A stretch of DNA of 64,000 nt from Octopus vulgaris (taxonomy: Eukaryota), in assembly GCA_951406725.2 (NCBI GenBank), contig OX597823.1:94178001-94242000 (forward strand), given 5' to 3'. Shown here piece by piece: positions 20,308 through 64,000 of this stretch. Position numbers and translations under genes: made by a program. Every line of letters begins with the position of its first letter. Within the stretch, counting starts at the first letter, position 1. Under the pieces are notes generated by a model. That model ran no database searches and was not told the DNA's origin. It saw only the letters and a program-made list of their open reading frames with translations.

Positions 20308-20473
20308 AGGTGCTGGAGTGGCTGTGTTATAAGAAGCTTGCTTCCCAACCACATGGTTCGGGGTTCAATCCCATTTCGTGGCACCTGGGAAAAGTGTTTT
20401 CTACTATAGCCTCGGGTCGACCAAAGCCTTGTGAGTGGATATGGTAGACAGAAACTGAAAGAACCCCGTCATA

Positions 20474-20519
<46 letters not shown>

Positions 20520-22572: not shown

Positions 22573-22991
22573 ACCTATTTCTTTACTACCCACAAGGGTC
22601 TAAACACAGAGAGGACAAACAAAGACAGACAAACGGATTAAGTCGATTATATCGACCCCAGTGCGTAACTGGTACTTATTTAATCGACCCCGAAAGGATG
22701 AAAGGCAAAGTCGACCTCGGCGGAATTTGAACTCAGAACGTAACGGCAGACGAAATACCTATTTCTTTACTACCCACAAGGGGCTAAACTCAGAAAGGAC
22801 AAACAAGGACAGACAAACGGATTAAGTCAATTATATCGACCCCAGTGCGTGACTGGTACTTATTTAATCAACCCCGAAAGGATGAAAGGCAAAGTCGACC
22901 TCGGCGGAATTTGAACTCAGAACGTAACGGCAGACGAAATACTGCTTAGCATCTCGCCCGGCGTTCTAACGATTCTGCCAGCTCGCTGTCC
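22573..22991 (-). mobile_element. SINE family B (Nin-domain-like core), head-to-tail dimer with 12-bp target-site duplication
   Basis: Two near-identical units; TSD tgatgactacat at 22561-22572 and 22992-23003; core gcctttcatcctttcggggtcgat..aagtaccag. Confidence 0.9.
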
Positions 22992-33077: not shown

Positions 33078-33471
33078 TCTTTTACTCATTTACTCTTTTA
33101 CTTGTTTCAGTCATTTGACTGCGGCCATGCTGGAGCACCGCCTTTAGTCGAGCAAATCGACCCCAGGACTTATTCTTTGTAAGCCCAGTACTTATTCTAT
33201 CGGTCTCTTTTGCCGAACCGCTAAGTGACGGGGACGTAAACACACCAGCATCGGTTGTCAAGCAATGCTACGGGGACAAACACAGACACACAAACACATA
33301 CACACGCATACATATATATATATATATATACGACAGGCTTCTTTCAGTTTCCGTCTACCAAATCCACTCACAAGGCATTGGTCGGCCCGGGGCTATAGCA
33401 GAAGACACTTGCCCAAGATGCCACGCAGTGGGACTGAACCCGGAACCATGTGGTTGGTTAGCAAGCTACTT
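33078..33471 (-). mobile_element. tRNA-derived SINE, family A (young, 5' end replaced by adjacent element)
   Basis: Consensus-like copy; minus strand ggttccgggttcagtcccactgcgtggcatcttgggcaagtgtc (B-box + CORE-like motif). Confidence 0.9.
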
Positions 33472-39455: not shown

Positions 39456-39845
39456 AGGCGCCAGAATCGTTAGCCTCGCCGGGCAAAATGCTTAGCGGTA
39501 TTTCGTCTGCCGCTACGTTCTGAGTTCAAATTCTGCCGAGGTCGACTTTGCTTTTCATCCTTTCGGGGTCGATAAATTAAGTACCAGTCACGCACTGGGG
39601 TCGATATAATCGACCTAATCCGTTTGTCTCTCCTAGTTTTCCCCCTCTATTTTTAGCCCCTTGTGGGTAGTAAAGAAATAGGTATTTCGTCTGTTGCTAT
39701 GTTCTAAGTTCAAATTCTGCCAAGGTCAATTTTGCCTTTCATTCTTTCGGGATCGATAAATAAAGTACCAGTGACACACTGCAGTTGATTTAATCGACTC
39801 GTCCCCACATCCCCCAAGCTGCTCTTGTGACAAAATTTTGAAATT
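39456..39845 (+). mobile_element. SINE family B dimer: young LINE-tailed unit followed by headless older-subfamily unit
   Basis: Junction aaagaaata|ggtatttcgtc at 39681; second unit more diverged and ends cttgtgacaaaattttgaaa. Confidence 0.85.
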
Positions 39846-39879
39846 ATTATTCTTATAGTAGTTGTTGTTCTTGTTTTAC

Positions 39880-44397: not shown

Positions 44398-44402
<5 letters not shown>

Positions 44403-44630
44403 CTTTACTACCTACAAGGGGCTAAACACAGAGAGGACAAACAAGGACGGACAAAGGGATTATGTCGATTACATTGACCCCAGTGCGTAACTGGTACTTA
44501 ATTTATCGACCCCGAAAGGATGAAAGGTAAAGTCGACCTCGGCGGAATTTGAACTCAGAACGTAACGGCAGACGAAATAGGGCTACGCATTTCGCCCGGC
44601 GTGCTAACGTTTCTGCCAGCTCGCCGCCTT
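44398..44630 (-). mobile_element. SINE family B, young monomer inserted in (TA)n
   Basis: Full head aaggcggcgagctggcagaaacgttagc through tail gccccttgtaggtagtaaagaaa. Confidence 0.9.
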
Positions 44631-44925
44631 CGATATATATATATATAGGTGAGAAAGTTATGCATATATGAGTACAGGACATCACCAACTGTGTAAAGAA
44701 CATGAAACACGAAGACAAACGAGTTAAATACGTAAACAACGAAAGAAAAAAAATGGAAAAAAGGAAAAGTAAACACAGAAAAAGGACCGTTCATCAGTTC
44801 TCGGCTGTCTGTCTACTCCTCATTTCGAGCATATACATCTATAAAATGTATATTTAAATGCATACACATACTTATATACATACATATAAGGCACAAAAAG
44901 AAAATGACTCTCCCCAGACACCACA

Positions 44926-53195: not shown

Positions 53196-53612
53196 GGCGG
53201 AAGATGGCAGAAACGTTAGCATGCCGGGCGAAATGCTTAGCGGTATTTCGTCTGCCGCTACGTTCTGAGTTCAAATTCCACCGATGTCGACTTTGCCTTT
53301 CATCCTTTCGGGGTCTATTAAATAAGTACCTGTCACGCACTGGAGTCAATATAATCGACTTAATCCGTTTGTCTGTTCTTGTTTGTCCTCTCTGTGTTTA
53401 GCCCCTTGTGGGTAGTAAAAAAAAATAGGTATTTCGTCTGCCGTTAGGTTCTGAGTTCAAATTCCGCCGAGGTCAACTCTGACTTTCATCCTTTCGGAGT
53501 CGATGAATTGAGAACCAGTTGCGCACTGGGGCCGATGTAATCGACTTAATCCGTTTGTCTGTCCTTGTTTGCCCCCTCTATGTTTAGCCCCTTGTGGGTA
53601 GTAAAGAAATAG
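53196..53612 (+). mobile_element. SINE family B head-to-tail dimer
   Basis: Junction aaaaata|ggtatttcgtctgcc at 53428. Confidence 0.9.
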
Positions 53613-56482: not shown

Positions 56483-57059
56483 TGTATGTATGTATAATAT
56501 GTCAGCTAGTTTTAATGGCTATAAAATGTCAGATTTCAATATAAATTTCCTTTTACGACAAATTAAGAGTAATTACATGGTTGCCAGCATCGCTATAATT
56601 GCGAAATCAGTGTGAAATATAGAACAATGTGGAGCTTGTGTTAATTACGAAACTATTTACATGACAGTGTTCTTAAATTACATTCATTCGATCCTTGAAT
56701 TATGAAGCAAATTTTTGTTCAGGTTGTTGTTGTTTTATTCTAATAAAATGTGAGTATAAGTCACATATCTGTCCCTGCATTTATAAACAAAAATAACGCG
56801 ATAAGCCCGTTTGTGCCAACAATAAGGAATATCGTCCTATTATTTTGTTCTGCTAAATTGCTTAACGGTCTTCCTGCGAGTTGCATATTTTCAATTATAA
56901 GTTTCTCGCTATGGGCTCTGGCGTGGCTGTGTGGTAAGAATTTTGCGTGGCACATGGGATTTATTCTGCTATAGAATCTGTCCAACTAAAGTCTTGTGAG
57001 TGGATTTGGTAAACAGAAACGGACTGAAGCCCGTCGTATATATATATATATGTATATAT

Positions 57060-58887
<1,828 letters not shown>

Positions 58888-59645
58888 CAACCGGTGTTGT
58901 GTTTACTTTCTCGTAACTTTGCGGTTCGGTAAAACGATCGACAGAATAAGTACAGGCTTAAAAACTAGAAATAAGTACTGGGATCGATACAAGCGACTAA
59001 AAATGTTTCAAGGTGGTGCCCCAGCATGGCCGTAGTCTAATTACTGAACCAAGTGTAAATATACACGATAAACGATTTTTCGCAGTCTGTTTTTATTTTT
59101 TGTTTCTTGTTTCTTTTCAGTTTTTTCTTTTACTTCCTTTTATTTTTGGTCTTTCTTTAGTATCAAGGAAGGTGCAGCGCTTTAGGTTTTTGCAAGACCC
59201 AGAAATTGGGTCGATCGCTACCATTAAGTTTTCGTTTAAACAGTTGTGATTTGGCCCGTACAGTAATGATGTCCAGAGAGAATATTCTAGATGGCTGAGG
59301 TTCGGGTGTAGAAAGGAATGGGTGTAATGTTTTGCATCGAGCGAGAGTAGTTTGGCACAACATGATGATGAAAGGAAAAGCTGTGTGAAGATATAAGACC
59401 ATGAAAGTCTGTGTCTTAAAGGCCATCATTGATGATATTTTGTCGTGGGCCGAGAAAGACAATTCTAGCTGAACAACCAGCAAAAATGATTGGTTTATAG
59501 TGATCAAATATTCGGGCCGCACATTAGCTCACTCCCTCCATCAAATCGACGAGAGAAATAAAAGCGAAAAGATCAGCCACGAGGATTGCAGAACTTTCTG
59601 ATAAATATAAGAACTACGAGTTCAACGAAATGGATAAAAAGACTC

Positions 59646-59808
59646 AAGGCTATTGAGGTTTACGAGACGGTGGCAGGAGCAAAGATCAACCGGGAAAAGT
59701 CGGTCGGCTTGTAGCTCGGCACATGGGTTGGCAAGTCGATGCCTTCCGACGGTGTTGTTGACGCTGGACGGAGAGGCCGGTTAAATTGCTGGGAATTTGG
59801 TTTGGAAA
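59646..59808 (+). repeat. Displaced duplicate of LINE RT segment 61045-61205
   Basis: aaggctattgaggtttacgagacggtggcaggagcaaagatcaaccgggaaaagtcggtcggcttg shared. Confidence 0.85.
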
Positions 59809-59950
59809 AAGACGCGTATACAAAGTCGGTGTCGATGATGAGATTGGATTTTAATCAATCCATTTTTCAAGACTTGCCACCTCCGACCCTATGAGAAGAA
59901 ATGGTGGAGAGACCCTCTCCACAGGACAACCCGGATTAAATATGTAAATA

Positions 59951-62574
59951 ATGTCTATTCACATTGGTTGTGTAAATGGTTGTGGCCTGATGTCTAGCTG
60001 GAAGTAAGGGCGCTTCCTAAATGACATCAAATCAAGAAAATGTGATTGTTGCAACGGAAACCCGGGTGAAGGGGCCAAGAGATCTGCTCCCCCTCCTGAA
60101 CAGCTATGAGAAATACGTTTCTCCGAATCGGGCGGGAGGTGGTAGTGGGGTGTTGTTTCTACTAAAAAGAAACCGGGTAGCCGAGAAAAAGTTTTTTTTT
60201 CTGATCCAGAAGGCAGATAAACCACTTGAGACAACAGGCTGAATCGCGCAAGCACAGTCGCCAAGTATCGATGGTCAACCCTATCAAAAGCTTTAGACTG
60301 GTCCAGATGTACCTTTTCACCACCTTAGCCAGATTTATTACCAACCCTCTCTATGGTATAGCGAATAAGGTGGAGATTATCCTGAATGATTCTGCCTGTG
60401 ATGGCACATGTCTTTGCCTCCCCGACAATACCATTCGCGACACGCAGGGAGTAGTGACGTTAGTCAGAAAGGACCCGGACAAAGGGACATTTTAGATAAC
60501 TTCAGGCCCATCACTCTGTGAAACGCAGAAGTGAAGATTTAGGCCAAGGTCTTAGCAAAAATGTTGGCGCGTGCCGCAAATGGTATTGTCGGGAGGCACA
60601 GACATGTGCCATCACAGGCAGAACCATTCAGGATAATCTCCTCGCTATACCATAGAGAAGGTTGGTAATAAATTTGGCTAAGGTGGCAAAAAGGTACATC
60701 TGGACCAGTCTAAAGCTTTTGATAGGATTGACCATCGATACTTGGCGACAGTGCTTGCACGATTCAGCCTAGGCCTTGGCTTCCTCAAGTGGTTTATCGC
60801 TTTGTACCACAACATTGAGTCGATAGTTCGGGTGAACGGTTTCCTTTCGAAGCCGTTCTGCATCAAGCGCTCGGTTCGTCAAGGATGTCCGCTCTCACCA
60901 CTTTTGCATGTGGTGGCTTTTGAGCCCCTACTCCGATGGTTGAGTGGCATTCCGAGAGAATCAGGTTTAACGGAGCTTGTTACCGCTTACGCGGACGATA
61001 TCACTATCAGCGTAACCACAATGCCACGCCTACGTGAAGAGGGTAAGGCTATTGAGGTTTACGAGACGGTGGCAGGAGCAAAGATCAACCGGGAAAAGTC
61101 GGTCGGCTTGCAGCTCGGCATGTGGGTTGGCAAGTCGATGCCTTCCGACAGTGTTGTTGGCGCTGGAAGGAGGGACCGGTTAAATTGCTGGGAGTTTGGT
61201 TTGGACAAGGCCTACAGATAGAGAAGAACTGGGCAGAGGTTTCGAGCAGGGTGGCTGCAGTAGTTAAAACCTGGTCTTGGTGGTGGCTATCCCTGAAAGG
61301 GATGGCAGAGGTGATCAGTGTGTTTATCGCATTGGTCATTACCTACCGCCTGACCGTCGTGCCCTGTCCGAATTCGTGGTCGATCAGGCTGGAGAGACAG
61401 CTCTTTCGCTTTTTGTGGAAGGGCAGGTCGCCACTTGTGAAACATTCTGTTGTCAAAAGCCGTTAAAGGGAGGTTTAGTGATACCTTGGCTAATGATGCG
61501 CAGGCATGCGTTGAGGTTGAGGCAACTCTGGATTTTCCTGGATGGTGAACGGGTGTGAGCTCCGATGGCCAGGCAAATGTTTCCCGAGTTCAAAGGTTTT
61601 TGCGAACAGGAAGTCTGGTGTTTTCGTAGACCGAGGTCGAATGAATGGCATAAAGAGTGCCGTAAGGTCTTCTTGCTATTCCGGCGCTCGGGCAACGCCA
61701 GCGGTGGAGGTTCTACACGAATTTTATGTAGTGGGTTGGTAGAGTCTGAATGTGACGATGGTCTGGAGGCGACTCTAGGCCTCGGGTTTGCTCAACTGCA
61801 TAGCCTGTTCCATAATACATTCGGGTTGAGAACGTTGGACAACTTCCTAAAGTCTTGACCTGGCAATGTTACAAAGGTGCCTTGTCCGTTTGGGATAAGC
61901 TCGCAAGACATGGTAAACGTCAGTCTCCGACCTGTCCAAGATGCGAGGGAGACAAGGAAACCGTCCCTCACGCTCTTGCCCAGTGTCCGGAGATATTAGA
62001 AATGTGTGTTTATGCTGAACACCTGTTGTCCGGCGAAGGAAGAGTATGGCTGTCGACTGAGTCAATTGTAAAAATTGACCCACCGGAAGTTTTAACAAAC
62101 GAAGGTAAGAATTGTTCTCTCACGGTTGTAGCAACAGCGAAAGAGGCAGTATGAAGACTAGGATAAAAGGGATTAAGACAGGCAACTTTATCTCCGGCCA
62201 CGATTTACGATCATTTTTTACCCTTCATTTGAAAAGGAAGTTGTGGCTGGAGAAGAGGTGTCTGTCGGAGAGTATGTTCAAAAAGAGATGGAAGCATGCT
62301 GCACGAGTGTTGTGCGTGCAAGAAACCGTGTGAATAAGTTATAAAAGAAAAACAAAAAATGGTACCAGCGATAGATTGGGATTTGTGGGGTCGGAGCGTG
62401 GCCTGATCATCGCTATATTTGTGTTGTCTTTGTATTGTTAATTTCATTCGATTTTTTAAATATTTTATATAATTTTTATATTCATATTTAATGAAAAATC
62501 GTAGCGCATTACTGATCCCAATCAGTTGTTTTGTCCATTTCTGTGTTTGGCCCCCTGTGGGCAATAAAGAAATT
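59951..62574 (+). pseudogene. L1/Tx1-like LINE ORF2 pseudogene (APE start, RT, CCHC) with 3' UTR
   Basis: MSIHIGCVNGCGL..VIVATETR..GSGVLFLL (APE N-terminus); NFRPITL, DQSKAFDR, SVRQGCPLSPLL, AYADDIT (RT); CPRCEGDKETVPHALAQC; multiple stops and frameshifts. Confidence 0.9.
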
Positions 62575-62782
62575 GGTATTTCGTCTACCGTTACGTTCTA
62601 AGTTCAAATTCCGCCGAGGTCGAGTTTGCCTTTAATCCTTTTGGGGTCGATTAAATAAGTACCAGTTATGCACTGTAGATATTGGATTTTAATCAATCCA
62701 TGGTCGATGTAATCGGCTTAATCCCTTTGTCTGTCCTTGTTTGTCCCCTCTATGTTTATCCCGCTGTGGACAATAAAGACAT
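62575..62782 (+). mobile_element. Headless SINE family B unit directly after the LINE 3' end
   Basis: Starts ggtatttcgtctaccgttacgttct, the same start as second units of the SINE dimers. Confidence 0.85.
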
Positions 62783-64000
62783 AAAAAGGTCATAATACTA
62801 GCAGCAGAAAAGACAGAGAGAAGAAATAGCACACCTGTGGTCGAGAAACTACAACGAACCTGTGAGCGATTTTATGCTAATCACACCATTTTTTTTTAAT
62901 GTTGTCCATCATTCTTTTCTACTCTAGACACAGGGCCCATGTCGTCCATTATTATAAGTGAAATGTTCTCGAAATAGCAAGTATATCCTCCGATTATGAA
63001 TTGCAAATTCACATGATACCGAATTTAAGAAATATATATAATACATTCACGAATTATTAGTGTTGCTCCAGGTGAGATTTGATCTCAGCTAACCAATCTG
63101 ACGTAACTACAGAATCTGTCCAAGAAAGTAGCTTCAAATTCTATCGTTTTGTGTCAAGTATTTAACTGATAGAGATACAAATTACAAATGTCTACGAAGG
63201 ACCAGAAATTTGGGGTTTATGAAGGTTGAATTATATTTGGCTTGACTGGCACTTAATTGTCGCTCCCAGAAGTAGGAAACGCAAAGTTGACGTCAAGTGT
63301 ATTTGAACTTCGAATGCTAACTGTTGAAACGAACACCGCAAAACAGTTTGGTTCTATGATTTATCGATTCTGCCAATCCATAACGTAAAAGAAGGAGTTG
63401 GTCTAACTGAAGTTCAGGGTCACATGTCTGTGAAGATATCTATAATCTGTGAAATGGAATGTCATCCAAATTTAATGGCCCCAGAAGTGTAAAATCACAA
63501 CCAGTCTCAACGCTAGAATTTGAAATCAAAACCTATGTGAAACTAACTACACACCACAAGGTGTTAATTTCACTACTGATTGTGATAAAGGTCTTTAATC
63601 TGCATAATGGTAACAAAGAACACTGTACGCTTACAATACGACATAACGCAAATATTCACACAGACATATGAATATAGTTTTACACAAACAATATTTTAAA
63701 ATAAAGATCTTTGAACAAATTTTATAAAACTATTTTATTTTATTTTAGTTTTGTTATTTAAAAATTTAATGGTCAAATTTATTGATAGTGGAATATAGCT
63801 CCTGTGAGGAGAGGAAATCAAGTTCTTGTGATGGTTAAATGCAAGAATACAGCATACACCATGTAGGATGTGTTATCTTTGATCTTTAAACGGCTTCGAT
63901 ATGTTTTTTCCCTTCTCTAGTCACCGTTTGTGAACCTCGTTGAAGAACACTTGTCTATGTTTAAAAATATCTACCAAAAAACAATGCCAAAAAAATCACT

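Follow-up and report, generated by a model that had tools for sequence, protein, structure and literature searches.

A probable Tx1-type LINE family inserted at one site in the head of an abundant octopus SINE

Background

By one published rule, Tx1 LINEs are regarded as targeted when more than 20% of their flanks lie in one repeat, and the closest described system, that of the crocodilian Tx1-Mar LINEs with their SINEU passengers, has its target in another transposon (Kojima 2015, PMC4494074, available portion). The octopus system described here resembles it in that a LINE of likely Tx1 type and a SINE prefer one target within a transposon, and in that tandem SINE insertions enclose a target duplication. 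As far as the available text of that report goes, however, the crocodilian target is a third element, Mariner-N4_AMi, used with a regional preference, whereas in the octopus the passenger SINE itself provides the target, a single base, the SINE arrays have a single head, and one LINE subfamily is shifted by one base (PMC4494074). The APE-endonuclease LINEs Tx1L of Xenopus (in Tx1D), Keno (U2), and Kibi and Koshi (microsatellites) likewise have fixed targets, comparable to those of octopus sibling LINEs on (ATT)n and (TATC)n, but no SINE is named as their target in the same portion of text (PMC4494074).

The octopus SINE is also like the SINEs of stringent SINE-LINE pairs in having a LINE-type 3' end and no poly(A); unlike the pairs described in the available part of that review (Ohshima 2013, PMC3747384), its tail is common to many sibling LINEs, and thus the pair is not one-to-one. 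Arrays of tandem units derived from a SINE are reported from squamates (PMC10702118) and from the clam Scapharca (PMC11481361), in which only the first unit has a complete head; the accessible text of these two reports invokes no LINE target site, whereas the octopus unit boundary is the LINE insertion point. A 2026 annotation of octopus repeats lists 13 recently active L1-Tx1 families, and the word "target" is absent from its available portion (PMC13282606). No LINE targeting a SINE was found in the literature searched, which also took in accessible parts of PMC4758252, PMC4824008, PMC8869645 and PMC7265360, although Repbase, supplements and subscription papers might contain one.

Here we describe what is quite probably a LINE, likely of Tx1 type, that inserts at one base in the head of an abundant SINE of Octopus vulgaris and duplicates 10-16 bp of target, likely through nicking by its endonuclease, that likely also carries a tailed SINE to the same base, and that includes a later branch whose endonuclease has changed. 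That Tx1 elements target other transposons has already been published; what makes the octopus system testable is the one-base shift together with an intact enzyme. How APE endonucleases gain or alter sequence specificity is an open question, and one useful for targeted insertion, for which the octopus system offers an intact enzyme, a one-base shift relative to its immediate relatives, about 15 candidate residues and siblings on microsatellites. The system also suggests how a SINE that forms a large share of the cephalopod genome exchanged tails and made some 20,000 nested junctions, which bears on repeat annotation and dating.

The LINE copy in the window and its family

The stretch of DNA analysed, hereafter the window, comprises 64,000 nucleotides (94178001-94242000 of its contig) of a 2.8-Gb genome. 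It contains the 3' part of a LINE of the older subfamily A at 60447..62574 (+), with a broken reverse transcriptase, a zf-RVT domain, a 3' UTR and a tail (Pfam RVT_1, E 1e-17; zf-RVT, E 2e-7), which is 88% identical to full-length copies. The tail (62525..62574, +) has no poly(A), and about 45 nt of it are common to the SINE and to sibling LINEs. As the original prediction had placed it, the LINE runs to ...TTGTCCATTTCTGTGTTTGGCCCCCTGTGGGCAATAAAGAAATT at 62574 and is followed by GGTATTTCGTC from 62575, where the 3' copy of the target site GGTATTTCGTCTG begins (62575..62587, +; final base altered in this copy). The site opens a headless SINE body at 62575..62783 (+), the former target, with a Tx1-type tail of its own. 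Upstream, positions 59551..60445 (+) hold rearranged pieces of the same LINE, comprising the end of ORF1 with the start of the endonuclease (59819-60216), a displaced duplicate (59646-59809) and an inverted duplicate (60216-60445), and the 5' end has been lost together with the upstream SINE head. Because this copy is without a 5' junction, the window by itself cannot reveal a target duplication. A 24-bp piece of the LINE (59840-59863) also lies inside the target SINE body, at 62678-62701 (23/24 identical), and perhaps originated in the repair event that rearranged the copy.

The SINE-targeting LINE is a low-copy, L1/Tx1-type family with complete copies of about 5.1 kb, made up of ORF1 fragments and an APE-RT ORF2, and its tail pattern has 48 exact matches in the genome. 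Three subfamilies differ in internal identity (C 99%, A 91%, B 86%), and ORF2 is intact in C, with open frames of up to 1134 aa recovered by protein query. The endonuclease of C matches L1-EN (E 1e-9), and RVT_1 and zf-RVT are also matched in the LINE. Upstream of ORF2, the ORF1 fragments of several copies contain CFQCGQLGHIKKYC, which we take to be a CCHC knuckle. For more than 30 close copies, matches are confined to the end of ORF2 (query residues 45-175 only), and these may be deleted passenger elements.

Among named relatives, one from Argonauta hians is nearest to the LINE protein (53% identity), which scores 176 bits against a TX1-annotated alligator protein and 71 bits against L1 ORF2p. 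In a reverse transcriptase tree of 29 of the 120 listed homologues, drawn without an L1 outgroup or curated Tx1 sequences, the LINEs fall in a 14-row clade of their own, in which A and C are sisters (100/100) and which also includes the Argonauta protein and the (ATT)n family. The SINE-targeting LINE is likely of Tx1 type.

Insertion site and target duplication

The position of the 3' ends was read from several sets of copies. Among 30 copies obtained with a tail-free DNA query, 28 show the tail, then GGTATTTCGTCTG and then a SINE body, the remaining two being without a 3' end; the tail segment 62531-62574 is present in those 28 and therefore does not belong to a truncated SINE dimer. A query that included the tail finds the site behind it in 30/30 copies (one then masked), and a protein query places 27 of 30 ends at the site. 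The tail-pattern search, whose 30 copies include five of one duplicated LINE-in-LINE locus, gives 27/30 by a strict rule, and two of its misses keep the SINE body after a small deletion. When the sets are pooled, 90 of 94 distinct 3' UTRs, partly from loci picked by the junction itself, end at the site, with one masked and three elsewhere. In 40 arbitrary 10-kb stretches, with 800,000 strand positions in all, site-like words occur 50 times (6e-5 per position), and by this measure the 3' flanks of the LINE are not random.

A SINE head and a duplicated target, looked for at the 5' ends as the original prediction had proposed, are also present. All 22 older 5'-intact copies (11 + 6 + 3 + 2 from successive sets, two of them from the duplicated LINE-in-LINE locus) start behind the site, with either the head or the tail of a SINE upstream of it. 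The identical 13-mer GGTATTTCGTCTG stands at both ends of complete copies, so that the target duplication read from paired ends is 13 bp long, though only 10 bp in some B copies, and one copy has the same TTTTG variant of the site at both ends (L411/L382). Sequence-specific insertion with target-site duplication, the combination expected of Tx1 elements, is accordingly seen at 28/30 of the 3' ends and at 22/22 older and 12/13 subfamily C 5' ends. These junctions, the duplicated target and heads far more diverse than the LINE copies within them give strong support to the proposal that the SINE is the target of the LINE.

Among the older 5'-shortened copies, 25 of 26 (the window copy among them) lack a SINE head where they break off, the flank examined being at most 1.5 kb for 13 of those without a head. 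Because 8 of 11 5'-intact copies carry internal deletions, and because the sole young truncated copy keeps its head, the headless breaks are probably due to later deletion. The LINE-in-LINE locus (L193-L197) has a variant site and common deletions, and occurs at five places on three chromosomes. At L065:3225-3620, a LINE 5' end is preceded by four additional tandem repeats of the final 76 bases of the SINE tail.

The shared tail and its possible donors

The SINE and the LINE share both a 3' tail and an insertion site, from which the original prediction had concluded that capture of this LINE's tail created a SINE subfamily. The sequences do not single out this LINE as the source: the tail is not specific to the SINE-targeting lineage, as the same motif ends an (ATT)n-targeting family, a (TATC)n-flanked family and five more relatives, and the SINE-targeting LINE stands out from siblings with other targets only by a best or tied-best score. 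Aligned to the SINE tail, it scores 60/64, the TATC family 54/64 and the relative L428 58/62. A protein search aimed at the tail donor yielded no family but the (ATT)n one in the 30 loci examined.

It has close to an even chance of being true that the LINE targets the SINE but that the SINE acquired its tail from a sibling LINE that has a different target, and is a passenger of several LINEs. The breadth of the motif and the closeness of the scores argue for such a donor, as do SINE tails of X type, which match the last bases of the SINE-targeting LINE best and of which just 7 of 53 reach the site. Against it, only the SINE-targeting lineage shares its target with the Y-type SINE, and no sibling outscores it in the tail alignment. 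With a tail common to sibling LINEs on microsatellites, the donor is unproven; the SINE tail would have come from some member of this LINE group, and conceivably from this very LINE.

One of the siblings is very young, with an intact ORF2 of 1145 aa, (ATT)n flanks on both sides and head-to-tail arrays of about 5.87 kb (L301-L350; for example at G000:C4:93.80-93.84 Mb and in contigs C47 and C50). Another, at L084:350-2300 (-), has (TATC)n behind the same tail motif. Two relatives, L424 and L427, have open frames of 1132 and 1089 aa and identical sequence behind their tails, which suggests another fixed target or tandem arrays.

A one-base shift of the target in the youngest subfamily

Older subfamilies of the LINE sit at GGTATT, and the youngest, C, at the variant CGTATT. 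In copies of C the tail runs directly into CGTATTTCGTCTG, and C is the opening base of the site in 12 of 13 of them versus none of 66 A/B copies. At the 5' end, 12 of the 13 begin behind a head and CGTATTTCGTCTG, mostly with the linked head variant GCGTAGC, and the thirteenth is 5'-truncated with its head kept. The SINE heads of 11 C copies are 87% alike beside 5' UTRs that are 99% alike, which argues that the heads are separate, older, pre-existing targets and were not brought by the LINE. An old-type SINE body lies downstream of 1/13 C copies versus 31/56 A/B copies (p 0.002). At L414/L385, a single 16-bp outer duplication encloses three layers (C head, LINE C, young unit, old unit). At one young LINE 5' junction, contigs from four public runs break inside the SINE head, and no empty-site allele was seen; record 32 of run X8, which has a different organism code, contains a junction of a C-type head with the LINE 5' end that differs at one of 213 bases.

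Amino-acid changes specific to C are concentrated in the endonuclease (15/232, versus 24/894 in the rest of ORF2, the latter figure from one C copy; p 0.008), and changes specific to A/B show no significant excess there (15/232 versus 38/894; p 0.16). The C-specific endonuclease changes recur in six C copies. One of them, S200T, aligns with the specificity hairpin loop of L1, the exchange of which changes nicking profiles according to the available part of one report (PMC1950540). At residue 143, in the numbering of the intact C copy L431, all six C endonucleases read GDSN versus GDFN in A and B. The last 18 bases of the tail are identical in A, B and C while the site differs. Judged from these sequence comparisons, it is likely that the youngest LINE branch occupies a one-letter variant of the site because its endonuclease changed.

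Of 38 heads sampled from random DNA, 7 are C-type. Junctions of a SINE or LINE tail with the C site number 474, versus at least 20,554 with the G site, as counted with patterns of unequal stringency, of which the G pattern is the narrower; among the first 100 listed C-site tails, 15 are of LINE type. The low count at C sites may alternatively reflect C-type SINEs that are younger than most G-type insertions.

Specificity could also reside mainly in the RNA, with read-through transcripts pairing with nicked DNA, a loose endonuclease, and a shift from G to C that reflects no more than a master copy that chanced to sit in a C-type SINE. This is unlikely, but several observations are in its favour. 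The site lies directly behind the tail in every copy, and read-through RNA would thus include it; flanks vary with the type of SINE tail, and 10 of 53 X-type tails meet a second site in the head that starts like their own tail end; and target co-transcription is reported to strengthen R2 targeting (PMC4494074, available portion). The excess of change in the C endonuclease speaks against it, although pairing could still choose among nicks. A further test is provided by off-target SINE insertions, of which 17 of 30 have a traceable duplication (2-3 mismatches of 17 per position, with two rows that are microsatellite register artefacts): the 5' copy of the duplication mostly also starts GGTAT, so the RNA does not overwrite the site. 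An initial hint of such overwriting at the 3' junction is unsupported by these 17 duplications. The SINE head does contain a second fixed junction, some 30 bases ahead of the main site and before AGAAACGTTAGC (L063, L072, L103, L255 and others), mainly with X-type tails.

The tailed SINE and its arrays

The target SINE is a dispersed, non-coding element of about 230 bp with target duplications and a LINE-type tail. ARAGORN found 0 tRNAs and Rfam gave no tRNA match. Words on either side of the target site in its head are, we presume, A- and B-box-like.

Four junctions in the window, at 22759 (minus), 39681, 53428 and the end of the LINE at 62575, had been put forward as independent insertions at one motif. 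All four positions do join the same motif, but the independence of the SINE-SINE junctions was not borne out, as the pair at 22.7 kb is 96% identical and has one target duplication around both units. This single-head dimer (22575..22990, -) has AGTATT as its first site and a 15-bp duplication around the whole. The dimer joined at 53428 (53205..53611, +), also single-headed, has the 9-bp duplication GGAAGATGG on both flanks; the outer ends of both arrays lie at off-target sites that start with GG, each with its own duplication. The array joined at 39681 (39456..39850, +, in (ATT)n) consists of a SINE head with a young Tx1-tailed unit, followed by a unit that, as first noted, belongs to an older subfamily, with another, older tail and 82% identity to a young copy. 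Targeting is also as incomplete as had been supposed: a tailed monomer at 44399..44632 (-), with its junction at 44398, lies in (TA)n, with a TA duplication at both sides, and has a C-type head (GCGTAGC, then CCTATT), the class of head occupied elsewhere by the youngest LINE subfamily.

Genome-wide, the exact SINE tail followed by GG occurs 36,831 times; 20,554 of these run on into the site, mostly in single-head arrays, and 3,427 into GGTAT plus another base. In the 40 arbitrary 10-kb stretches, 28 tails were found and 2 removed as sibling-LINE tails; this left 26, of which 6 occupy the target site, 7 lie elsewhere at sequence beginning GGTA and 13 occupy other, mostly AT-rich sequence. A figure of 114/115 G-type sites behind tails carries little weight, the loci having mostly been chosen for that GG. 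Insertions that read head, duplication, head are few (18 exact; 2 of 71 arrays), with single-head arrays predominating, and these second heads show direct targeted insertion.

The tailed SINE had been proposed to carry and multiply its own site. The proposal stands in outline, given the 20,554 junctions, the second-head insertions and the dimers of young and old units, but long arrays look locally amplified and 20 of the 26 random tails are off target. In 25 young-old dimers, the upstream unit is the less diverged in 19 (7.0% vs 12.3%, a gap inflated by the mixed old class), and 24 young-young dimers have no age order (10/24). The last units of the young-old dimers are at most 92% identical to each other, an observation that speaks against a small number of dimeric masters. 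Where arrays reach five or more units, most contain runs of inner units that are 97-100% alike, a pattern that would point to local amplification. GCGTAGC heads are found in 0/19 old or other heads, yet stand first in 4 arrays that end in an old unit, which fits either replacement of the target's head by an incoming one or co-mobilization of a dimer. At L068 and L081, long target duplications joined at homology fit homology-primed 5' joining.

It is doubtful that the arrays arose without any targeted re-insertion, by tandem duplication at the DNA level or by retrotransposition of multimeric read-through RNAs, even though double heads are rare (18 exact vs 20,554; 2/71) and long arrays are homogeneous inside. 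Of 33 arrays with an old tail at the end, 14 are enclosed as a whole by one outer duplication (under a loose rule, some perhaps by chance), as is the 22.7-kb dimer of the window, and single-head arrays in the clam are ascribed to unequal recombination in the accessible text of that study (PMC11481361). Such processes cannot, however, place a Tx1-type tail before an old-tail unit, and 38 of 71 arrays, mostly chosen for the G junction, finish in an old or non-Tx1 unit, each a different one. The register of the arrays is exactly the site of the LINE, and the first unit of a dimer is no copy of its own second unit, being closer to it than cross pairs are in only 9/25 and 9/24 cases.

Proposed mechanism

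Under targeted insertion of both LINE and SINE, the endonuclease would nick the bottom strand just ahead of the site, and reverse transcription would begin at a structured tail. An unusually stable tail hairpin was not supported by folding (z-scores -1.6 to +0.9), the hairpin predicted for the LINE tail being weak (z -1.6). SINE RNA holds the site together with the head, so its cDNA could pair with the upstream target, and an array would retain one head, sometimes the incoming one. Every insertion would rebuild a site, and some arrays might then expand by local tandem exchange. The older machinery would seldom have struck C-type heads, which a later LINE branch would have colonized with a changed endonuclease.

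A broader scenario is offered tentatively, as possible but not probable. The SINE would furnish the landing site of its own carrier, first-base variants would have escaped and spread, perhaps under selection for SINE escape, and a LINE branch would have retuned its endonuclease in a chase between transposons, while seamless SINE-in-SINE joins would turn old-tail SINEs into Tx1-tailed ones with the site rebuilt.

That the SINE body is the LINE's own 3' end, or that the copies are segmental duplicates of a single insertion, would suit the SINE body behind nearly every copy, the one LINE-in-LINE locus duplicated at five places and the many shortened copies (most of them) without a 5' head, but is refuted, to the point of being hardly credible, by downstream units of different subfamilies, a site duplicated at the 5' end, heads 87% alike beside UTRs 99% alike, and flanks that differ on many chromosomes.

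Other repeats of the window

An open frame of 388 aa at 57736-58902 (-) has a weak GIY-YIG match (E 0.007) and is presumably a Penelope-like element; the neighbouring sequence, 58888-59054, has five occurrences across the window. Another short repeat family, which bears no relation to the target SINE, is found at 56943-57049, 2631-2737, 20374-20483 and 33317-33427, its copies being 77-79% alike.
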